From positions 186,615-250,614 of the forward strand of contig JBEIPA010000004.1 in NCBI GenBank assembly GCA_040377305.1: 64,000 nt of DNA. Direction: 5' to 3'. Origin of the DNA: Flavobacteriales bacterium (lineage in GTDB: Bacteria > Bacteroidota > Bacteroidia > Palsa-965). Below the pieces are notes generated by a model. The model was given only the letters and a program-made list of their open reading frames with translations. It was not told the origin of the DNA and did not search any database. A program made the translations under genes and the position numbers. Shown here in pieces: positions 45,916 through 53,737 of this stretch; within the stretch, counting starts at the first letter, position 1; every line of letters starts with the position of its first letter.

Positions 45916-46024
45916 GTAATTGCAGGCAAAGATACTGAAGCAAGGCAGAAAAGATGGTGAGTAACACAATAAACACCCGAATTTCGAGTTATTACACGGC
46001 ACACTTTCGTTAAATTTGTCCTAC

Positions 46025-48346
46025 ATGAAACTCCGGATACGCACAACCGGCCTGCTTCTAGGTTTGTTATTTTCGTTTGCACTTGGCGCAATGCCAATCG
46101 GTTCGTGGAGCATCCACTTGCCGTATTACGAATGCAAATCAATTACGCAGAGCACGTCATTCGTTTGGACTGCAACAGACAATAGTTTGTTCCGGCTCAG
46201 CAAAGGAGATTTCTCTATTGAGAAGATCACCAAAATAGAAGGTCTATCTGATCTCGCAATCGGAACGGTTGAATACAACGCCTACAACGACGTAGTAGTT
46301 GTAGGTTACCAGAATGGAAACCTCGACATCATCAAGGGCAACAAAGTTTACAACCTGCCTGACATAAAGCGCTCACAAATTGTAGCGAACAAGTCCATCA
46401 ACCGCGTTTTCTTCATCGGTGCGATAGCATATCTTTCAACAGGCTTTGGAATTGTTGTGGTAGATACGGATCGGAACGAAATCAAAGACACATATCTGAT
46501 TGGTCCCAATGGAAATTACATTGCGGTATACGACATCACCTCGGACGGGACAAACCTATATGCAGGTACAGCGACAAGTATTTACACGGCATCACTCAGC
46601 AATCCATTTCTTGCTAACTATCAGTCATGGACCCAGATGAGCGGTTTGCCGCAGGGTCTCTACAACTGCGTGGAAGTATACAACGGGCAAATCATTGCAA
46701 GCGCTACACGGTATCCCGCATTTTTCCAGCAAGACATTGTATGGTATGCTGATCTTTCGAATCCAATTTGGGACACGATCGTAGATAGCGTTACATGCAG
46801 GGAAATTCAAGTGCAGGGTAACAACCTGTGGATTCTTGATGCATTTGGAATTCTCAAATACGATGCGGACTTTTCATTGCAAACGGTTTACTACACTTTG
46901 GGAAATAGTGTATCCCTTTTCCCAACGGACTTCGTAGTGGAAGTAGATGGCTCACCGTGGTACTCTGATCTGTTTGTGGGCTGTGTTCACATGACTCAGC
47001 CGTACACCGGAATATCTTATCGTCCAAACGGGCCCGTAAGCATAAGTGCATCTGGAATGGATTTGGAGCAAGGTCGGCTTTGTGTTGTTCCCGGCGGCAG
47101 AGATGATGCTTGGAATAATATTTACAATCGCGCTGGAATTTCTTTCTACCAGAATAATTGGTGGGACGTGATGAAGAAAGAGCAGCATCCTGCACTTGAC
47201 ACCATTGACGATATCAACTTCTGTGAAATCGATCCGAATGATAATCAACACGTGTGGTTAGGCTCCTGGGGAAAAGGATTGGTTGAAGTCCGGAATAATA
47301 CCATTGTAAACACGTATGATCATTTCAACTCTATTCTCGAGAGAAAAGTAGAATATTCATGGTGCGGTATCGGTGGCATCAGATATGATGAAGAAGGAAA
47401 TCTGTGGATGGTGAATTCGCACACGATGAAGTGTCTGAAAGTCAAAAAAGCAGACAACACCTGGGCGGAATTCGATTTTCAGGGATTGCTCACAACCGGA
47501 ACAACAGTTGGTGATTTAATGATCACTGAGAATGGATACAAGTGGATGATCGTTCCGCGAACACTCGGTATGATTGTGTTCGACGACAATGGAACGATTG
47601 ACAACACCACCGACGATCGCAAGAAGAAGTTAGGCTTCACTACCGGCACAGGCGCAATTCCCGGAACCGATGTGCTATGCATGGCTGAAGACAAAGACAA
47701 TGAAGTTTGGATTGGAACAGATAAAGGCGTTGCGGTTTTCTATTGTGCAGATAATATTTTCGCTTCTGGTGGTTGCGATGCACAACAGATTCTGATTCAA
47801 CAGGGTGAATACACCCAGATTCTCATGGAGAGCCAGGTGGTAACTGCAATTGCGGTTGACGGCGCGAACAGAAAGTGGATCGGAACAGAAAGCGGTGGAG
47901 TGTTTCTGATGTCGGAAGATGGCACAAAAGAGATTCATCATTTCACGGCAGATAATAGTCCTTTGCTGAGCGACAACGTAACCGGCATTACAATCGATAA
48001 AGAGTCGGGAGAGGTTTTCTTCTCTACCGGTAAAGGAATTGTTTCCTACAAGAGTGATGCAGTGGAAGGTGATGATGTAAACGGAGATGTCTATGCATAT
48101 CCGAATCCAGTTCGTCCGGAATACAACGGTCCGATTGCTATTCGCGGAGTAGTGCGTGACGCGGATGTAAAGATCACTGACGTTGCCGGCAATCTGATTT
48201 TCCAGACAACAGCTCTTGGCGGACAAGCCATCTGGGACGGAAAAAATTTCCAGGGCGAACGCGCAGCTTCTGGCGTGTATATTGTTTTCATCACCAATGA
48301 AGACGGCACGCAGAAGAAAGTCACCAAAATCTTATTAATGAACTAG
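46025..48346 (+). CDS. porZ: PorZ-like T9SS beta-propeller protein
   Basis: W..HLPY N-terminus, propeller repeats (DGANRKWIGT), AYPNPVRPEYNG C-terminal domain; directly upstream of recO. Confidence 0.85.
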   Translation: MKLRIRTTGLLLGLLFSFALGAMPIGSWSIHLPYYECKSITQSTSFVWTATDNSLFRLSKGDFSIEKITKIEGLSDLAIGTVEYNAYNDVVVVGYQNGNLDIIKGNKVYNLPDIKRSQIVANKSINRVFFIGAIAYLSTGFGIVVVDTDRNEIKDTYLIGPNGNYIAVYDITSDGTNLYAGTATSIYTASLSNPFLANYQSWTQMSGLPQGLYNCVEVYNGQIIASATRYPAFFQQDIVWYADLSNPIWDTIVDSVTCREIQVQGNNLWILDAFGILKYDADFSLQTVYYTLGNSVSLFPTDFVVEVDGSPWYSDLFVGCVHMTQPYTGISYRPNGPVSISASGMDLEQGRLCVVPGGRDDAWNNIYNRAGISFYQNNWWDVMKKEQHPALDTIDDINFCEIDPNDNQHVWLGSWGKGLVEVRNNTIVNTYDHFNSILERKVEYSWCGIGGIRYDEEGNLWMVNSHTMKCLKVKKADNTWAEFDFQGLLTTGTTVGDLMITENGYKWMIVPRTLGMIVFDDNGTIDNTTDDRKKKLGFTTGTGAIPGTDVLCMAEDKDNEVWIGTDKGVAVFYCADNIFASGGCDAQQILIQQGEYTQILMESQVVTAIAVDGANRKWIGTESGGVFLMSEDGTKEIHHFTADNSPLLSDNVTGITIDKESGEVFFSTGKGIVSYKSDAVEGDDVNGDVYAYPNPVRPEYNGPIAIRGVVRDADVKITDVAGNLIFQTTALGGQAIWDGKNFQGERAASGVYIVFITNEDGTQKKVTKILLMN

Positions 48347-48560
48347 AGTTGGGTGGCTTGCAGCCGGCTTATCACGGCGACTCGGTGATACGGCGCAAGT
48401 GTTCCTCGTTCTAAGCCCAACCGGAGTTTCGGAGATTGGAACTTAACAATTATACGCCGCGACCGCCGGATGGGCATTGGCTGTTCAGTCCAAAGATTTT
48501 TCGCCGAAACGCCGAAACGCCGTGGTAAGCGTCGCAGACAACCACGATCTTCGTGCAAGA

Positions 48561-49286
48561 ATGTTATACAGCACCCGCGGCATAATTTTTCACACCGTTC
48601 CTTATTCCGATAGCCGCGTCATTGCGAAAATCTATACACAGGATTTCGGATTGCTGTCGTTCATCGTGACCGTATCGCGTTCGAAAAGCGGAAAAATAAA
48701 ATCGCCTTTACTGCAAGCGCTTACGCAAGTTGATTTGCGCATAGAGAAAAAAGAAAAAAGCCATTTGCATGCGGTGCGGGATATTACACTAGCGATTCCG
48801 TATTCGCATTTGCACAACGACATTGTAAAAACAACTATCGCTCTTTTCACCGCAGAGATTTTGTACAAATCTGTTCGCGAAGAAGAAAGGAACGATGCGT
48901 TGTATACCTACATTTCGAGTTCGCTGATGGCGCTCGATGTTGCACACGATGGAGTTGCGAATTTTCACCTCGTATTTATGATGCATTTGGCGCGATTCCT
49001 GGGATTTTATCCGCTGGAGAACGAATCGGGGCCCGACAGTGTTTTCGATTTAACCAACGGCACGTTTGTGGCCTCTACGCCGAATCATTTCAACTTTCTT
49101 GATGTGGAGGAATCGCGCTTGTTCGAAGAAATCTTTCACAGCGATTTCGAGCACATGCATGAACTTAAGTTGAATGGGGAGAAGAGAAGAATTGCTGTTA
49201 ATGCGATACTACGCTATTACGAAGCGCACATTGCAGGAATGCAGAAGGTGGTTTCCCACGAAATTCTGAGCAGTATTGTTCAATGA
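48561..49286 (+). CDS. recO: DNA repair protein RecO
   Basis: TRGIIFH..PYSD...KIYT..FG OB-fold start and LGFYP motif; start moved from 48477. Confidence 0.92.
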   Translation: MLYSTRGIIFHTVPYSDSRVIAKIYTQDFGLLSFIVTVSRSKSGKIKSPLLQALTQVDLRIEKKEKSHLHAVRDITLAIPYSHLHNDIVKTTIALFTAEILYKSVREEERNDALYTYISSSLMALDVAHDGVANFHLVFMMHLARFLGFYPLENESGPDSVFDLTNGTFVASTPNHFNFLDVEESRLFEEIFHSDFEHMHELKLNGEKRRIAVNAILRYYEAHIAGMQKVVSHEILSSIVQ

Positions 49287-49301: not shown

Positions 49302-50810
49302 TCACGGAATCTTCACAAACTCGTACGGCATATAATCCACAAAATCTGCAACGGAAATGGTAATCGAAACTACTTTTCCATTCTCGATTTTAAACGGAGC
49401 CGCTTTCACACCCCACAGCGGAGTGTTATAAGTACACAGGAATGTTGAATCGCCCATATAATCAAGCGTGCCGAAATATTTCGGATGGTGTTCGAACATG
49501 GCAGTGATTTTGCCTTTCTGTTCTACAACGAGCATTTTGCCGTAAACCGCATTTACATAAGTCCCTGCAAAGTCTTTCGCAGCAACAGGAAGTTTCGGCG
49601 CTGATTTCACTTTGGCCTGCCACATCGCAATCTGGGTGTCTTCTTGCGCGCGTACCTGCATCACCGCAACAACATTCTGCTTGCTATAGTTGGTGTACGG
49701 CAGCTTCAGATATGCATCGATGATCATGCGGCGCAAATCGTTGTAGAGATTGTTCTGATCCGTGTTCGTGAGTACGACAATGCCGAGATTCAATTCGGGA
49801 ACAAAACAAACGGTGGTGACGAATCCGCTCGTACCTCCGTTGTGCCAGAAAGGTTGTACACCGTTGTAATCCATCGTCTGCCAGCCGAGACAGTAACTCG
49901 CAAGGTGAGATCCTTTTGTGCGGGCAGGAAGCGGAATTGCAGGCTTGCGTGTTTCAACCAGTGCTGCGTAAGGAATCACTTGTTTGCCGTTGTGTTTACC
50001 GCTGTCGAGCTGACACATTACCCATTGTGCGAGATCTTTCACACACGAGTTGATCGATCCTGCAGGACCAAGATTATTGATGTTGTCGTAAGGAACAGTT
50101 ACTTCTTTGCCGAGAAACCAGGAGTGACCGGTTGCTTTGTTTTTGTCGGTGAGCAATTCTTCGTACGTGGTGCTTGAGCGTTTCATGTCGAGCGGAACGA
50201 AAAATTTATCGTGTACGAACTGATCCCAGGTTATTCCGCTCGCCGCAAGAATGACTTCTCCGGCAGCAGCGTAACCCATGTTGCAATAACCATACGCAGC
50301 GCGGAATCCGAAAACAGGTTTGTTCTTCGCCATTTGCCCAACGATTTCTGTGCGCGTGAAGTTCGATCCCCAGTTTGCAAAATCTCCCTGAAATGTTTGC
50401 AAGCCTATGCGGTGTGTGAGCAGATCGCGCACGGTGCAATTATTCGTTGTGTAAGTTTCGTACAGTTTGAATCCCGGGATGAATTTGATCACCGAATCTT
50501 CCAGTGACAATTTCTTTTCCACGTGGAGCATTGCAACTGCAGTGGATGTAAACGCTTTCGAACACGAAGCAATCTGAAACAAAGTTTCGTCATCCACTTT
50601 GTCGGTCTTGCCTTGTTCTTTCACACCATAACCTTGCGACACGACAACTTTGCCGTCTTTCACAATAGCAACCGCAGCGCCGGGAATTGACCATGCGGCC
50701 ATTTCGCGTTGCATGAAGATGGTGAGGGAGTCGGTGACGAAGGAAGGTTGTTGGGCGAATGCTGAAAGGGAACTCAGTACGCCTAAAAGGAAGAGCGGGA
50801 ATTTCTTCAT
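49302..50810 (-). CDS. Serine hydrolase (beta-lactamase/peptidase S12 family) with DUF3471-like C-terminus
   Basis: FQIASCSKAF (SxxK), YCN and HNGG motifs; signal peptide from 50810. Confidence 0.9.
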   Translation of the reverse strand: MKKFPLFLLGVLSSLSAFAQQPSFVTDSLTIFMQREMAAWSIPGAAVAIVKDGKVVVSQGYGVKEQGKTDKVDDETLFQIASCSKAFTSTAVAMLHVEKKLSLEDSVIKFIPGFKLYETYTTNNCTVRDLLTHRIGLQTFQGDFANWGSNFTRTEIVGQMAKNKPVFGFRAAYGYCNMGYAAAGEVILAASGITWDQFVHDKFFVPLDMKRSSTTYEELLTDKNKATGHSWFLGKEVTVPYDNINNLGPAGSINSCVKDLAQWVMCQLDSGKHNGKQVIPYAALVETRKPAIPLPARTKGSHLASYCLGWQTMDYNGVQPFWHNGGTSGFVTTVCFVPELNLGIVVLTNTDQNNLYNDLRRMIIDAYLKLPYTNYSKQNVVAVMQVRAQEDTQIAMWQAKVKSAPKLPVAAKDFAGTYVNAVYGKMLVVEQKGKITAMFEHHPKYFGTLDYMGDSTFLCTYNTPLWGVKAAPFKIENGKVVSITISVADFVDYMPYEFVKIP

Positions 50811-50892
50811 GGTTTTCATGTGGCAATTTACGAGACAGAACCAATGAGGATAAACACTCAATGGTCAACGCTCAATGAACAACGTTCAACGG

Positions 50893-51549
50893 TTAAATAT
50901 AGAGATCAATGAGTTCCCGCACACAACCCTCGCCACCCTTCTTCTGCAACACCACATTCACCATGTTCTTCACATCATCCACTGCATCAGCAGGACAAGC
51001 GGAGAAACCAACAGCGTTCATGATGTCTTCATCGTTGAGGTCATCGCCGATAAAGCAAACTTGTGCAGGAGTAATGTTCAATTCTTTGCACCAATGCGCG
51101 AGGGTTTCTTTCTTCGGAACCTGAGAAACTTCAACGTGAGAGATGTGTAAGCGTTCAGCGCGACGTTTGATCAGGTTGCTGTTGTACCCGTGAGAAATGA
51201 TTCCGGTACGAATGCCGCGTTGTTCTAATCTGCGAATGGCAAGACCATCCTTCGCGTTGAATTTTTTGAATTCGTCTCCGGCTTCGGTGTAGTACATTCC
51301 CGCGTCCGTCATCACACCATCGATATCGAAGATCACCATTTTGATGTCTTTGCTGCGCGCTTCTTCACGCGTTTCGAGATCAACTTTCAGAAGTAAATCT
51401 GTTGTGAGCGAAAAGCGATTAGCGATGGACGCAATTTCATCCGGCAGCGGATGTCCAAGATTAGTAACGCCAAGCTCAGTGCTCAACGATGCTTTTTCAA
51501 GTTCGTGCTTGCGAAGTAAGAAGGAAAGGTTTGCAGCGTATTGGCTCAT
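50893..51549 (-). CDS. kdsC: KdsC-family HAD phosphatase with a degenerate N-terminal XRE-HTH-like segment
   Basis: FDIDGVMTD, KDGLAI, GDDLND and GGEGCVRE motifs; ~60-aa N-terminal extension. Confidence 0.85.
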   Translation of the reverse strand: MSQYAANLSFLLRKHELEKASLSTELGVTNLGHPLPDEIASIANRFSLTTDLLLKVDLETREEARSKDIKMVIFDIDGVMTDAGMYYTEAGDEFKKFNAKDGLAIRRLEQRGIRTGIISHGYNSNLIKRRAERLHISHVEVSQVPKKETLAHWCKELNITPAQVCFIGDDLNDEDIMNAVGFSACPADAVDDVKNMVNVVLQKKGGEGCVRELIDLYI

Positions 51550-51564
51550 CGTGTGTGCGCGTAC

Positions 51565-51597
51565 AAACCTTAAAGGTTTTTAAAACCTTTAAGGTTT
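51565..51597. repeat. Perfect nested palindrome
   Basis: AAACCTTAAAGGTTTT-T-AAAACCTTTAAGGTTT. Confidence 0.85.
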
Positions 51598-51611
51598 ACG
51601 CGAAGGTGAAG

Positions 51612-52610
51612 TTAAATTATTTTCCGGCCAATCGATTCGGCAACCGCTTTCAACGACTTCGCGAGCGCACGGAATTCATCGTGATTCAATTGCTGCGAGG
51701 CATCGCTCTTCGCCACTTTCGGATTCGGGTGAACTTCGATGAGCAATCCATCAACGCCCATAGCTGTGCATGCGCGCGCGAGATCAGGCACGCCATACGC
51801 GTAGCCGATTGCATGACTCGGATCGAGGATCACAGGCAAGTTGCTGTATTGTTTCATCCAGGCAGCACCGCAAAGGTCGAGCGTGAAGCGTGTTTTCGTT
51901 TCGAATGTTCTGATTCCGCGCTCGCACAAAATCACGTTTGGATTTCCACCGGCGAGAATGAATTCAGCGCACTGCAGAAATTCCTGCAACGTACTTCCGA
52001 ATCCGCGCTTAAGCAAAACAGGCTTCTGTGTTTTTCCGCAACGCTTCAGAATGCCATGATCGTACATAGACTTCGCACCGATCTGAATAATATCAGCATG
52101 TTCGATGATGTCTTCAATCTGAGTTGCATCACGAACTTCTGTGATGATATTGAAACCATATTTCTCACGCATTTTAGAGAGAAGCTTCAATCCATCCAGG
52201 CCCATTCCCTGGAACGTGTACGGCGATGTGCGCGGTTTGTATGCACCAGCGCGCAACGTAGAAATACCAAGCTCTTTCAGCAAGGCAGCCGATTGTTCAA
52301 TCTGCTCTTCCGATTCAACAGAACAAGGACCGGCGATCAAAGCCGTGTGACCGGTAGTGCCGCCAATCTTCACGCCGTTAATGTCGATTGTACGCGTTTC
52401 GCTTTTCCATGCACGGCTCGACAATTGCATATCGTCGGCGAGCACAGTAACGCGATCTGCTTCTGCATCATACTTCTTGTCCAGCTCTTTCACCGAGGAA
52501 GAAGTGATAATGGTATATTTTCCCAGGTAATGAATGCAAAAAGCTTTTAACTCTTTTGCGATTTCATTCGCGCGGGTTTCATTGACGGAAGATTTGAGTT
52601 CGATGATCAT
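51612..52610 (-). CDS. Type I-beta DAHP synthase-like ulosonate-phosphate synthase
   Basis: IAGPCSVE, KPRTSPY, CERGIRTFE and DPSHA motifs; IGAKSMYD in place of the usual IGARNMQN. Confidence 0.88.
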   Translation of the reverse strand: MIIELKSSVNETRANEIAKELKAFCIHYLGKYTIITSSSVKELDKKYDAEADRVTVLADDMQLSSRAWKSETRTIDINGVKIGGTTGHTALIAGPCSVESEEQIEQSAALLKELGISTLRAGAYKPRTSPYTFQGMGLDGLKLLSKMREKYGFNIITEVRDATQIEDIIEHADIIQIGAKSMYDHGILKRCGKTQKPVLLKRGFGSTLQEFLQCAEFILAGGNPNVILCERGIRTFETKTRFTLDLCGAAWMKQYSNLPVILDPSHAIGYAYGVPDLARACTAMGVDGLLIEVHPNPKVAKSDASQQLNHDEFRALAKSLKAVAESIGRKII

Positions 52611-52625
52611 ATTTTCAATTTTTGT

Positions 52626-52657
52626 CGCCTTCGACTGAGCGTAGCCGAAGGATGACG
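52626..52657 (-). repeat. REP-like element
   Basis: Minus strand CGTCATCCTTCGGCTACGCTCAGTCGAAGGCG. Confidence 0.75.
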
Positions 52658-52658
52658 A

Positions 52659-53663
52659 TCAGGCCTCGCCTTTCACGAGGTTGAAGAATGTTAATGCACC
52701 AGTTACTTTGTTTTCACTATCCACAACAGGCAAATAGGTAATGGCAAACGTTTTTGATTTGATAAGTCGGATGAGCTCAACAACAGTTGCGTCTTCGTGA
52801 ACCGTAACCGGAGTTTTGTTCGTGATATCACTTTCATGAATGTCGTTGAGCCAATTGATACGCTTCAATATGCCTTTACGCACATCTGCATTGCTGCTGA
52901 TTCCTTCGAGCTTCTCCTCGTTGTCGATGAGGATTGTGAATCCCATTTTATATTCATCAATGCTTTGCAGGATATTTTCAAAACTCCGTTGCGTGGGACG
53001 AAGCACCGGAATTTCACCGTACGTCATCATAAAATCTTTCACCTGAAAGTGCGATTCGTTCTCGTGCGTTTTCAGATTGAGCAATGCGAGCCCGAGTGTA
53101 TCTGCTTTGAACAAATACGATCCGGAAACAGATGCATAAACACCCATGTTACGCAGTATGAAGGAAACTTCTCCATTAACTCCGCCATCGACATGGATAC
53201 GTTTCGCAGGATATTTTCTGCCGAACTCACGAATCTTACGGAAGATTTCTTTGTTGAATTCTCCTCCGCTCTTTCCGGGAATCGTAGCCATCATGAGCAT
53301 GAAATCGAAACGCGATGCATATTGATGAAACACTTCGATGTCGGAAACAGCTGTTATTGCTAAACCGATTTTCCCTGTGATGGTCGAAGGAATTTCAAGT
53401 GCTCCGGGAAGATCTTCGTACTGAAACGTGACGTAATCGCACGGCGTTTTCTCAAGCAGCGGAAAATACTTCTCAGGTGTTTTCGAGATGATGTGAAGAT
53501 CAATCGGCGTTTTGCTGATGGTGCGGATTTTCGCAATATCATCAAACACTTTTGGATCGTCGTTACAATCGACATGGAACAAATCGATGCGGTGTGCATC
53601 CAATTCGCGAACAACTTCTTCCAAAGGACGGGAAGTAGAGTAGATGGATGCGGAGATTTTCAC
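52659..53663 (-). CDS. Ribulose-phosphate 3-epimerase-like domain fused to a CBS pair
   Basis: HVDCND, DLH, MATIPGKSGG, VDGGVN and SGSYLF motifs; C-terminal CBS pair; GTG start 4 nt after TATCTTTG. Confidence 0.85.
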   Translation of the reverse strand: MKISASIYSTSRPLEEVVRELDAHRIDLFHVDCNDDPKVFDDIAKIRTISKTPIDLHIISKTPEKYFPLLEKTPCDYVTFQYEDLPGALEIPSTITGKIGLAITAVSDIEVFHQYASRFDFMLMMATIPGKSGGEFNKEIFRKIREFGRKYPAKRIHVDGGVNGEVSFILRNMGVYASVSGSYLFKADTLGLALLNLKTHENESHFQVKDFMMTYGEIPVLRPTQRSFENILQSIDEYKMGFTILIDNEEKLEGISSNADVRKGILKRINWLNDIHESDITNKTPVTVHEDATVVELIRLIKSKTFAITYLPVVDSENKVTGALTFFNLVKGEA

Positions 53664-53737
53664 GGGGCAAAGATAGCTATTTCAGTAGGCAGTCCGCCGC
53701 GGCGGAGCAGTAGGGCAGCAAGCAGTCTACCGTGCCG

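Follow-up and report, generated by a model that had tools for sequence, protein, structure and literature searches.

A cluster of three genes in the analyzed window, a 64,000-nucleotide stretch of contig JBEIPA010000004.1 from a Flavobacteriales bacterium, is likely to encode a widespread substitute for the first steps of Kdo (3-deoxy-D-manno-octulosonate) synthesis, as judged from sequence and gene content. The three genes, hereafter the trio, encode a ribulose-5-phosphate 3-epimerase (RPE)-fold barrel fused to a pair of CBS domains (gene 1), a paralogue of the type I-beta 3-deoxy-D-arabino-heptulosonate 7-phosphate (DAHP) synthases (gene 2) and a HAD phosphatase (gene 3). The trio very probably feeds KdsB and WaaA, since kdsD and kdsA are missing from nearly all genomes that carry it, kdsB and waaA are retained, and the slot of kdsD is occupied by the trio in one gammaproteobacterial lineage. 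The original prediction had offered two options, a non-orthologous route to Kdo in which an RPE-fold enzyme replaces the isomerase KdsD, or a pathway to a different 3-deoxy-ulosonic acid for surface glycans. The absence of kdsD and kdsA and the retention of kdsB and waaA support this pair of options, and they tie the product to the lipopolysaccharide (LPS) machinery instead of to unspecified glycans. An RPE-fold ribulose-5-phosphate isomerase is the less supported of the two, because no new conserved acid or base has appeared at the C1 end of the active site, and a different ulosonate is slightly favored. Our preferred candidate for the product, with a probability of about 0.5, is 3-deoxy-D-lyxo-heptulosonate, a seven-carbon analogue of Kdo.

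The trio follows the logic of the canonical KdsD (SIS with or without CBS; KpsF/GutQ)-KdsA-KdsC-KdsB-WaaA pathway, with a CBS-bearing maker of an aldose phosphate, an I-beta barrel that condenses phosphoenolpyruvate (PEP) and a C0-type HAD phosphatase, and the same downstream genes are retained. It differs from that pathway in having an RPE barrel in place of the SIS domain, a synthase that belongs to the DAHP-synthase branch and a phosphatase that scores under the KdsC equivalog cut-off. No description of such a system was found in a literature search, most subscription papers and supplements being outside its reach, and the trio is apparently undescribed as a replacement for Kdo synthesis. 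A large proportion of Bacteroidia from the environment have a gap in the pathway that it would fill, and current annotation of these genomes calls its genes rpe and aroF.

Distribution of the trio and exclusion of kdsD and kdsA

The source genome (Bacteroidota; 5.18 Mb in 60 contigs, 99.99% complete) was analyzed for its complement of Kdo-pathway genes. No kdsD was found in it: the TIGR00393 model matched CBS regions only, and four KdsD and SIS-only isomerase queries returned nothing at an E-value of 1e-3. The SIS proteins that the genome does encode were considered as KdsD candidates and rejected, being GlmS-like, MurQ-like, GmhA or GmhA-like and PGI/PMI-like, with no match to the four queries. 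Only two members of PF00793 are present, gene 2 and an AroF-chorismate mutase fusion, and the genome therefore has no kdsA. Canonical rpe, kdsB, waaA and aroB are all present, together with two further KdsC-like genes, so that, as had been proposed as a check, the genome lacks kdsD and kdsA and keeps a separate rpe and another DAHP synthase. A surface-glycan cluster (G000:C14:71383-90668; L009, L015), with NeuB-like synthase, cytidylyltransferase-like, KDN-9-phosphate-phosphatase-like and GmhA-like SIS genes, is a separate nonulosonate-type module.

The same pattern extends to other carriers. Among 50 genomes with gene 1, drawn from 79 loci and of unreported completeness, none has kdsD, one has kdsA and 47 have waaA. 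The threshold used for kdsD (1e-22 on TIGR00393) would also catch SIS-only isomerases, since these score 1e-43 to 1e-48 on the model. In addition, 32 of 34 carriers have kdsB, 29 of the 33 compared for rpe have a canonical copy, and 47 of 52 encode another PF00793 member, in agreement with the expectation that carriers would lack the canonical Kdo genes and retain separate rpe and DAHP-synthase-family genes. In a comparison of 54 genomes of the same class, which rests on kdsA and gene 1, 51 have kdsA, and the three without it are the three with gene 1. Within the family of the source organism, 20 of 23 genomes have gene 1 and none of these 20 has kdsA; two genomes, both of one genus, encode kdsA together with kdsD but lack gene 1 as well as gene 2, and the last genome has gene 2 at a contig end. 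These genome sets overlap and related genomes are not independent, and leaving out the two genomes flagged as unpublished, G227 (from the 50-genome set) and G276 (from the family), alters no conclusion. The weight of the exclusion evidence lies in repeated swaps within families (f1, f8, f12, f52, f53, f61). Several families of other classes in the phylum (f16, f21, f24, f25, f26 with 36 genomes, and f28) have neither kdsA nor gene 1, and loss of kdsA therefore need not require the trio.

The trio is also conserved as a cluster, which had been named beforehand as a further check. Gene 1 was identified at 79 GTDB loci, nearly all of them labeled Bacteroidota, and is adjoined by gene 2 in 69 and by gene 3 in 57 of them; contig ends cut eight of the ten loci without an adjacent gene 2. 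The clustering is not due to chance. Gene 1 was found at a further 80 metagenome loci, and a search with its protein returned 2663 matches, ordinary RPE and CBS proteins included. Of 401 Bacteroidia genomes in 202 genera, 86 genomes in 43 genera carry gene 2 at a presence threshold of E ≤ 1e-100. A phylum-wide draw recovered gene 1 in only 3 of 220 genomes, 54 of which belong to the class of the source organism, and its apparent frequency thus depends on sampling. Variants of the arrangement include one locus (L380; G272:C23:113900-115560) with ORFs that resemble, by eye, a methylase and a restriction endonuclease between gene 1 and gene 2, and two loci (L062, L067) in which gene 1 is directly joined to the phosphatase, gene 2 of the former (G270) lying on another contig.

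The position of the trio provides a second line of evidence. Neighbors of gammaproteobacterial type (lptCAB, rpoN, yrbG, mla, kdsC, kdsB) surround 17 of the 80 metagenome loci, the label being based on gene order and on the NCBI names of P0115 and P0117. The eight loci that show both flanks all lack kdsD and have the trio in inverted orientation, with yrbG on one side and kdsB/kdsC-lptC on the other; the order in E. coli is yrbG-kdsD-kdsC-lptC-lptA-lptB-rpoN, so that the trio sits in the slot of kdsD. Gene 2 copies of this lineage nest among Bacteroidia sequences in a quick tree, which suggests transfer. Replacements in place can also be seen elsewhere: two homologous flanking genes are followed by gene 1-gene 2 in G268, by kdsA-kdsD-gene 2 in G118 and by kdsA-kdsD in G074, and in G603 kdsD-kdsA occupy the place that gene 1 holds in relatives.

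This recurrence bears on the most conservative explanation of the trio, namely that it serves ordinary metabolism as an extra RPE and an aromatic-amino-acid DAHP synthase, that Kdo is obtained by uptake or by an unrelated route, and that the anticorrelation with kdsA reflects ancestry. Automated names do say rpe and DAHP synthase, five of 52 carriers encode no PF00793 member besides gene 2, and the families of other classes that lack both kdsA and gene 1 are in line with it. The shikimate pathway needs no phosphatase, however, separate rpe and DAHP-synthase genes are usually present, and swaps are seen repeatedly, both inside at least six families and at the kdsD position of the gammaproteobacterial loci, next to kdsB. 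We consequently regard ordinary metabolism as very unlikely.

Predicted functions of the three proteins

The N-terminal domain of gene 1 belongs to PF00834 (E = 9e-21) and is followed by the CBS pair. In the alignment, the metal ligands of RPE correspond to H30, D32, H57 and D159, which bears out the earlier description of an RPE barrel with intact ligands. Across 99 representatives of the family (22-62% identity), the RPE metal and acid/base residues and the phosphate motifs are near-invariant (H30 in 97, D32 in 98, H57 in 99, D159 in 98, G160 in 99 and G181 in 98), and S132 is kept in 96. With RPE (2FLI, 3OVQ, 7B1W) and AlsE (3CT7), gene 1 shares the fold, the HxD/DxH/DGG ligands, the third active-site methionine, the PG loop and the GS phosphate motif. 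At about 24% identity, it differs from RPE in its CBS fusion, in the loss of the MDGxFVPN loop and of two of the three active-site methionines, in the change of PGFGG to PGxSG and in the His of HxE, which is mostly Gln; on the rpe equivalog model TIGR01163 it scores 68 bits, against a cut-off of 213. The residues that we take to face C1 of the RPE substrate (L12, the DxM and HLM methionines and the FVPN loop) are fixed in 15 of 15 Bacteroidia RPEs and altered in gene 1, and no conserved new acid or base was gained at these positions among the 99 representatives. The beta-8 loop (GSY-LF) has the length found in RPE and lacks the one-residue insertion of E. coli AlsE (GTSGLF), which presumably sets the distance from phosphate to carbonyl. 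The altered residues around C1 and the intact catalytic core suggest epimerase activity in preference to isomerase activity, and gene 1 is a predicted aldose-phosphate 2-epimerase.

The predicted structure of gene 1 (pLDDT 91) matches RPEs best, and the best match of its CBS pair is KdsD (4O9K). A SIS catalytic domain is absent from gene 1, the KdsD profile aligning only at positions 156-267, which correspond to the CBS region. KdsD-type pairs top the CBS matches both in the PDB (4O9K) and in NCBIfam (kpsF), but the CBS pairs of IMPDH score equal to those of Bacteroidia KdsD. The resemblance to KdsD/GutQ that had been noted by eye stands as a best match, and a KdsD type for the pair is no more than suggestive. 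A distant tier of RPE-CBS proteins (P0186-P0270; 22-32% identity), one of them named as Elusimicrobiota, preserves this catalytic core, and its members often carry GIITDGDIRR, a motif resembling that of KdsD.

Profile, sequence and fold all identify gene 2 as a type I-beta DAHP synthase. It exceeds the cut-offs of NF006421 (375 versus 335 bits) and TIGR01361 (330 versus 268) and falls below that of the KdsA model TIGR01362 (124 versus 314), and it carries KPRTS rather than the KANRS of KdsA, as had been read from the sequence at the outset. KPRT is kept in 193 of 195 gene 2 sequences. In structural superposition, gene 2 matches DAHP synthases at E = 1e-38, with barrel rmsd values of 1.5-1.8, and KdsA at E = 1e-22 with an rmsd of about 3.3; in a quick tree, gene 2 forms a clade of its own apart from KdsA (SH-aLRT 95). 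The KANRS and PAFL motifs and the extended L7 loop of KdsA are absent from gene 2. In PMC6650799, that loop is tied to the binding of arabinose 5-phosphate.

Gene 2 shows 39-50% identity to the I-beta DAHP synthases of Thermotoga maritima (1RZM), Pyrococcus furiosus (1ZCO) and Aeropyrum pernix (1VS1), and retains their metal site (C96/H266/E292/D303), R120, K125, KPRTS, K201 and R231. Its N-terminal domain is homologous to that of the T. maritima enzyme but eight residues shorter. Specific substitutions set it apart, however: R186 of T. maritima is replaced by Lys, NxQN by [AS]MYD (GAR becoming GAK[AS]MYD) and GRR by GY.Y (within DPSHA[MI]GY.YG). Of 197 distinct sequences, 195 have Lys where the T. 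maritima enzyme has R186 and the remaining two are ordinary DAHP synthases, and Arg is found there in the aligned PDB members; the GARN.QN motif, whose Arg we assume to bridge both phosphates, does not occur in gene 2. The genomic context also differs, since I-beta DAHP synthases have aro and trp genes as operon partners and gene 2 has an epimerase and a phosphatase. Gene 2 is not the sole shikimate supplier in the source genome or in the 47 carriers with a further PF00793 member, and it is a predicted 3-deoxy-ulosonate phosphate synthase.

Gene 3 passes the YrbI/KdsC subfamily cut-off (TIGR01670, 135 versus 107 bits) and carries the DxDG and GDDxND motifs. It lies under both equivalog cut-offs, scoring slightly higher on the KDN-9-phosphate phosphatase model (141 versus 180) than on KdsC (124 versus 208), so that its earlier naming as KdsC holds at the level of the subfamily and not at that of the equivalog. 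A loop of the IIS[HS]G[YF] type, with a one-residue insertion, stands where gammaproteobacterial KdsC has IIT[AG]R. An N-terminal extension of about 60 residues, overlooked previously, is absent from the gammaproteobacterial copies. When the extensions of five relatives were compared with Cro/C1-type helix-turn-helix (HTH) models, one scored over the cut-off and two more below it, and the extension of the window copy gave no HTH match itself; one relative with an N-terminal HTH-type extension lies at L169:9976-10680. The HTH-like extension makes autoregulation possible.

Candidate product of the trio

In the route that we propose, gene 1 would use the RPE metal and two aspartates to invert C2 of D-erythrose 4-phosphate, which can be seen as ribulose 5-phosphate minus C1, yielding D-threose 4-phosphate. 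Gene 2 would condense PEP with threose 4-phosphate into lyxo-heptulosonate phosphate, gene 3 would strip the phosphate, KdsB would form the CMP-sugar, and WaaA would transfer its ulosonate. On stereochemical grounds, the product would have the ring configuration of Kdo at C4-C6 and a side chain one carbon shorter. The CBS pair of KdsD is a sensor of the CMP-sugar, and that of gene 1 may play the same part. The choice of the aldose draws on the beta-8 loop of gene 1: a loop of RPE length, given the role that we assume for it, would place the phosphate three carbons from the carbonyl, which points to erythrose 4-phosphate. The KPRT motif and the short L7 loop of gene 2 likewise speak for a four-carbon substrate.

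The combinations in which the genes occur also speak to the choice of aldose. Gene 1 never occurs without gene 2 (52 of 52 genomes, one gene 2 copy being split). Among 86 genomes with gene 2, 81 have gene 1, one is unscorable and four, from four families, lack it; all four carry both kdsD and kdsA. Stand-alone hybrids (gene 1 with kdsA, or kdsD with gene 2) were not seen in these overlapping sets of 52 and 86 genomes. Were arabinose 5-phosphate shared between the two systems, such hybrids would be stable end points, and their absence therefore favors a separate four-carbon route. The four orphan gene 2 copies deviate from 14, 7, 2 and 1 of 124 family-fixed columns, compared to a mean of 0.8 for paired copies, a clear drift in the first two.

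A shared arabinose 5-phosphate is what would be expected if the trio made authentic Kdo, with gene 1 producing this sugar by 2-epimerization of ribose 5-phosphate or by isomerization of ribulose 5-phosphate and gene 2 having re-evolved Kdo-8-phosphate synthase activity, an alternative that we consider a serious if doubtful one. Besides the missing hybrids, it has to contend with a gene 1 that lacks both the AlsE-type insertion and a new base at C1, with a gene 2 that lacks KANRS and the long L7 loop, and with a dedicated phosphatase carried even beside native kdsC; in L153-L156 the native gene is missing. All the distribution and synteny evidence nevertheless fits authentic Kdo, as does the finding that trio status is scattered on a quick tree of KdsB (nine changes, at least three of them forced). 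Moreover, KdsA likewise lacks the Arg that gene 2 has lost, and the newly fixed residues (S132 in gene 1 and, in gene 2, MYD) could shift the position of a longer substrate.

Several points weigh against the seven-carbon product and the strict exclusion that accompanies it. KdsB is unchanged at what we take to be its sugar contacts: R157, H181, Y185, E210 and Q211 (E. coli numbering) are conserved in every trio copy compared (30 of 30 from Bacteroidia, 12 of 12 from metagenomes), and a comparison of 30 trio copies, 30 kdsA copies and the 12 metagenome copies yielded only a trivial discriminating column. Recurrent replacement of one system by the other is most easily explained by Kdo itself as the product. 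The motif rulers applied here (KPRT versus KANRS, and the beta-8 loop) are working assumptions, and I-beta DAHP synthases also turn over arabinose 5-phosphate slowly. We know of no heptulosonate that links lipid A, and the literature search found none. The hybrid test amounts to four genomes. Frequently kdsD moves as a pair with kdsA, and of the four orphan gene 2 copies two fall within the range of paired ones (maximum 9). Finally, G262 carries both the trio and a kdsA, the latter in a different cassette, and gene 2 of G269 (G269:C2:30363-31359; L094) is split by a frameshift or stop, which may be a sequencing error.

A different ulosonate could also be made, either 3-deoxy-D-arabino-heptulosonate from erythrose 4-phosphate, with gene 1 boosting supply, or a lyxo sugar oxidized to 3-deoxy-D-lyxo-heptulosaric acid (Dha), destined for lipid A or another glycan. 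Gene 2 keeps the whole DAHP-synthase architecture, and it is the sole non-KdsA PF00793 member found in G118, G603 and G270, so that some activity on erythrose 4-phosphate is plausible; in these genomes (G118:C6, G603:C112, G270:C74) gene 2 may double as DAHP synthase, or they may be auxotrophs or incomplete. At C5, however, the arabino sugar would be wrongly configured to fit a Kdo site, most carriers keep canonical rpe while gene 1 has lost residues fixed in RPE, and no oxidase gene recurs near the trio, which makes these products unlikely.

For 3-deoxy-D-lyxo-heptulosonate, which we continue to prefer, a known relative is Dha, a side-chain sugar of plant rhamnogalacturonan-II with the same carbon skeleton and configuration that differs in being oxidized at C7. 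Its biosynthesis is listed as unknown in PMC12168206 and PMC3522684. PMC6650799 regards the connection of lipid A to the LPS core through Kdo as universal, and a DMB-MS survey (PMC8157484) treats seven-carbon ulosonates as shikimate intermediates. There is an even chance that the trio includes an erythrose-4-phosphate 2-epimerase, the first of its kind, together with a DAHP synthase put to a new use, and that lineages have repeatedly swapped eight- and seven-carbon linkers. In that event LPS would be Kdo-free, and the trio would provide the first gene-level route to the Dha skeleton and a lead, open to testing, on how Dha is made. Should the trio make Kdo, it would represent a second origin of Kdo-8-phosphate synthase, from a DAHP synthase and with an RPE-fold source of arabinose 5-phosphate. 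The enzymology would be new in both cases. The trio constitutes a natural experiment on four- versus five-carbon specificity in this enzyme family, and it is predicted to create blind spots for Kdo assays, Kdo-azide labeling and KdsA/KdsD inhibitors.

Locus architecture and related observations

The three genes were found co-oriented behind a promoter-like octamer, as originally described, with intergenic gaps of 48 and 62 nt (Table 1). The octamer, TATCTTTG, conforms to TAnnTTTG, which we take to be a Bacteroidota -7-type promoter element, and its position would make the gene 1 transcript near-leaderless. Of 143 loci, 77 have TAnnTTTG in the 60 nt upstream of gene 1 (raw count), with a mode of 5-7 nt.

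Table 1. Features of the trio locus and its flanks, in window coordinates.
Feature	Position	Strand	Remarks
Gene 1, RPE-fold barrel (aa 1-200) and CBS pair (aa ~205-334)	52659..53663	-	334 aa, GTG start
Gene 2, type I-beta DAHP-synthase paralogue, shortened N-terminal regulatory-type domain	51612..52610	-	332 aa
Gene 3, C0-type HAD phosphatase, KdsC/KDN-9-phosphate phosphatase group, N-terminal extension	50893..51549	-	218 aa
N-terminal extension of gene 3	51352-51549	-	~60 aa
Promoter-like element, Bacteroidota -7-type	53668..53675	-	4 nt before gene 1 GTG
PorZ-like	46016-48346	+	window flank
recO	48477-49286	+	window flank
Serine hydrolase with DUF3471	49302-50861	-	window flank

The genes flanking the trio in the window are unrelated housekeeping genes, and flanks differ among lineages. 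Recent import of the trio was considered and rejected, since its GC3 (0.48-0.53) lies inside the range of the genome (0.46 ± 0.05); full-length gene 1 was not found in the plasmids searched.

A further CBS fusion was observed at several loci (L107/L126, G262:C146; L129, G290:C68; G289:C104), where a protein of 338-344 aa combines a transaldolase/fructose-6-phosphate-aldolase fold with a similar CBS pair. Its gene lies between a variant kdsA (KDNRS, PAYLCMQ) and kdsC-like and kdsB genes, and an ESM Atlas cluster holds 57 transaldolase-fold-CBS proteins, which may represent a third supply of aldose phosphate.

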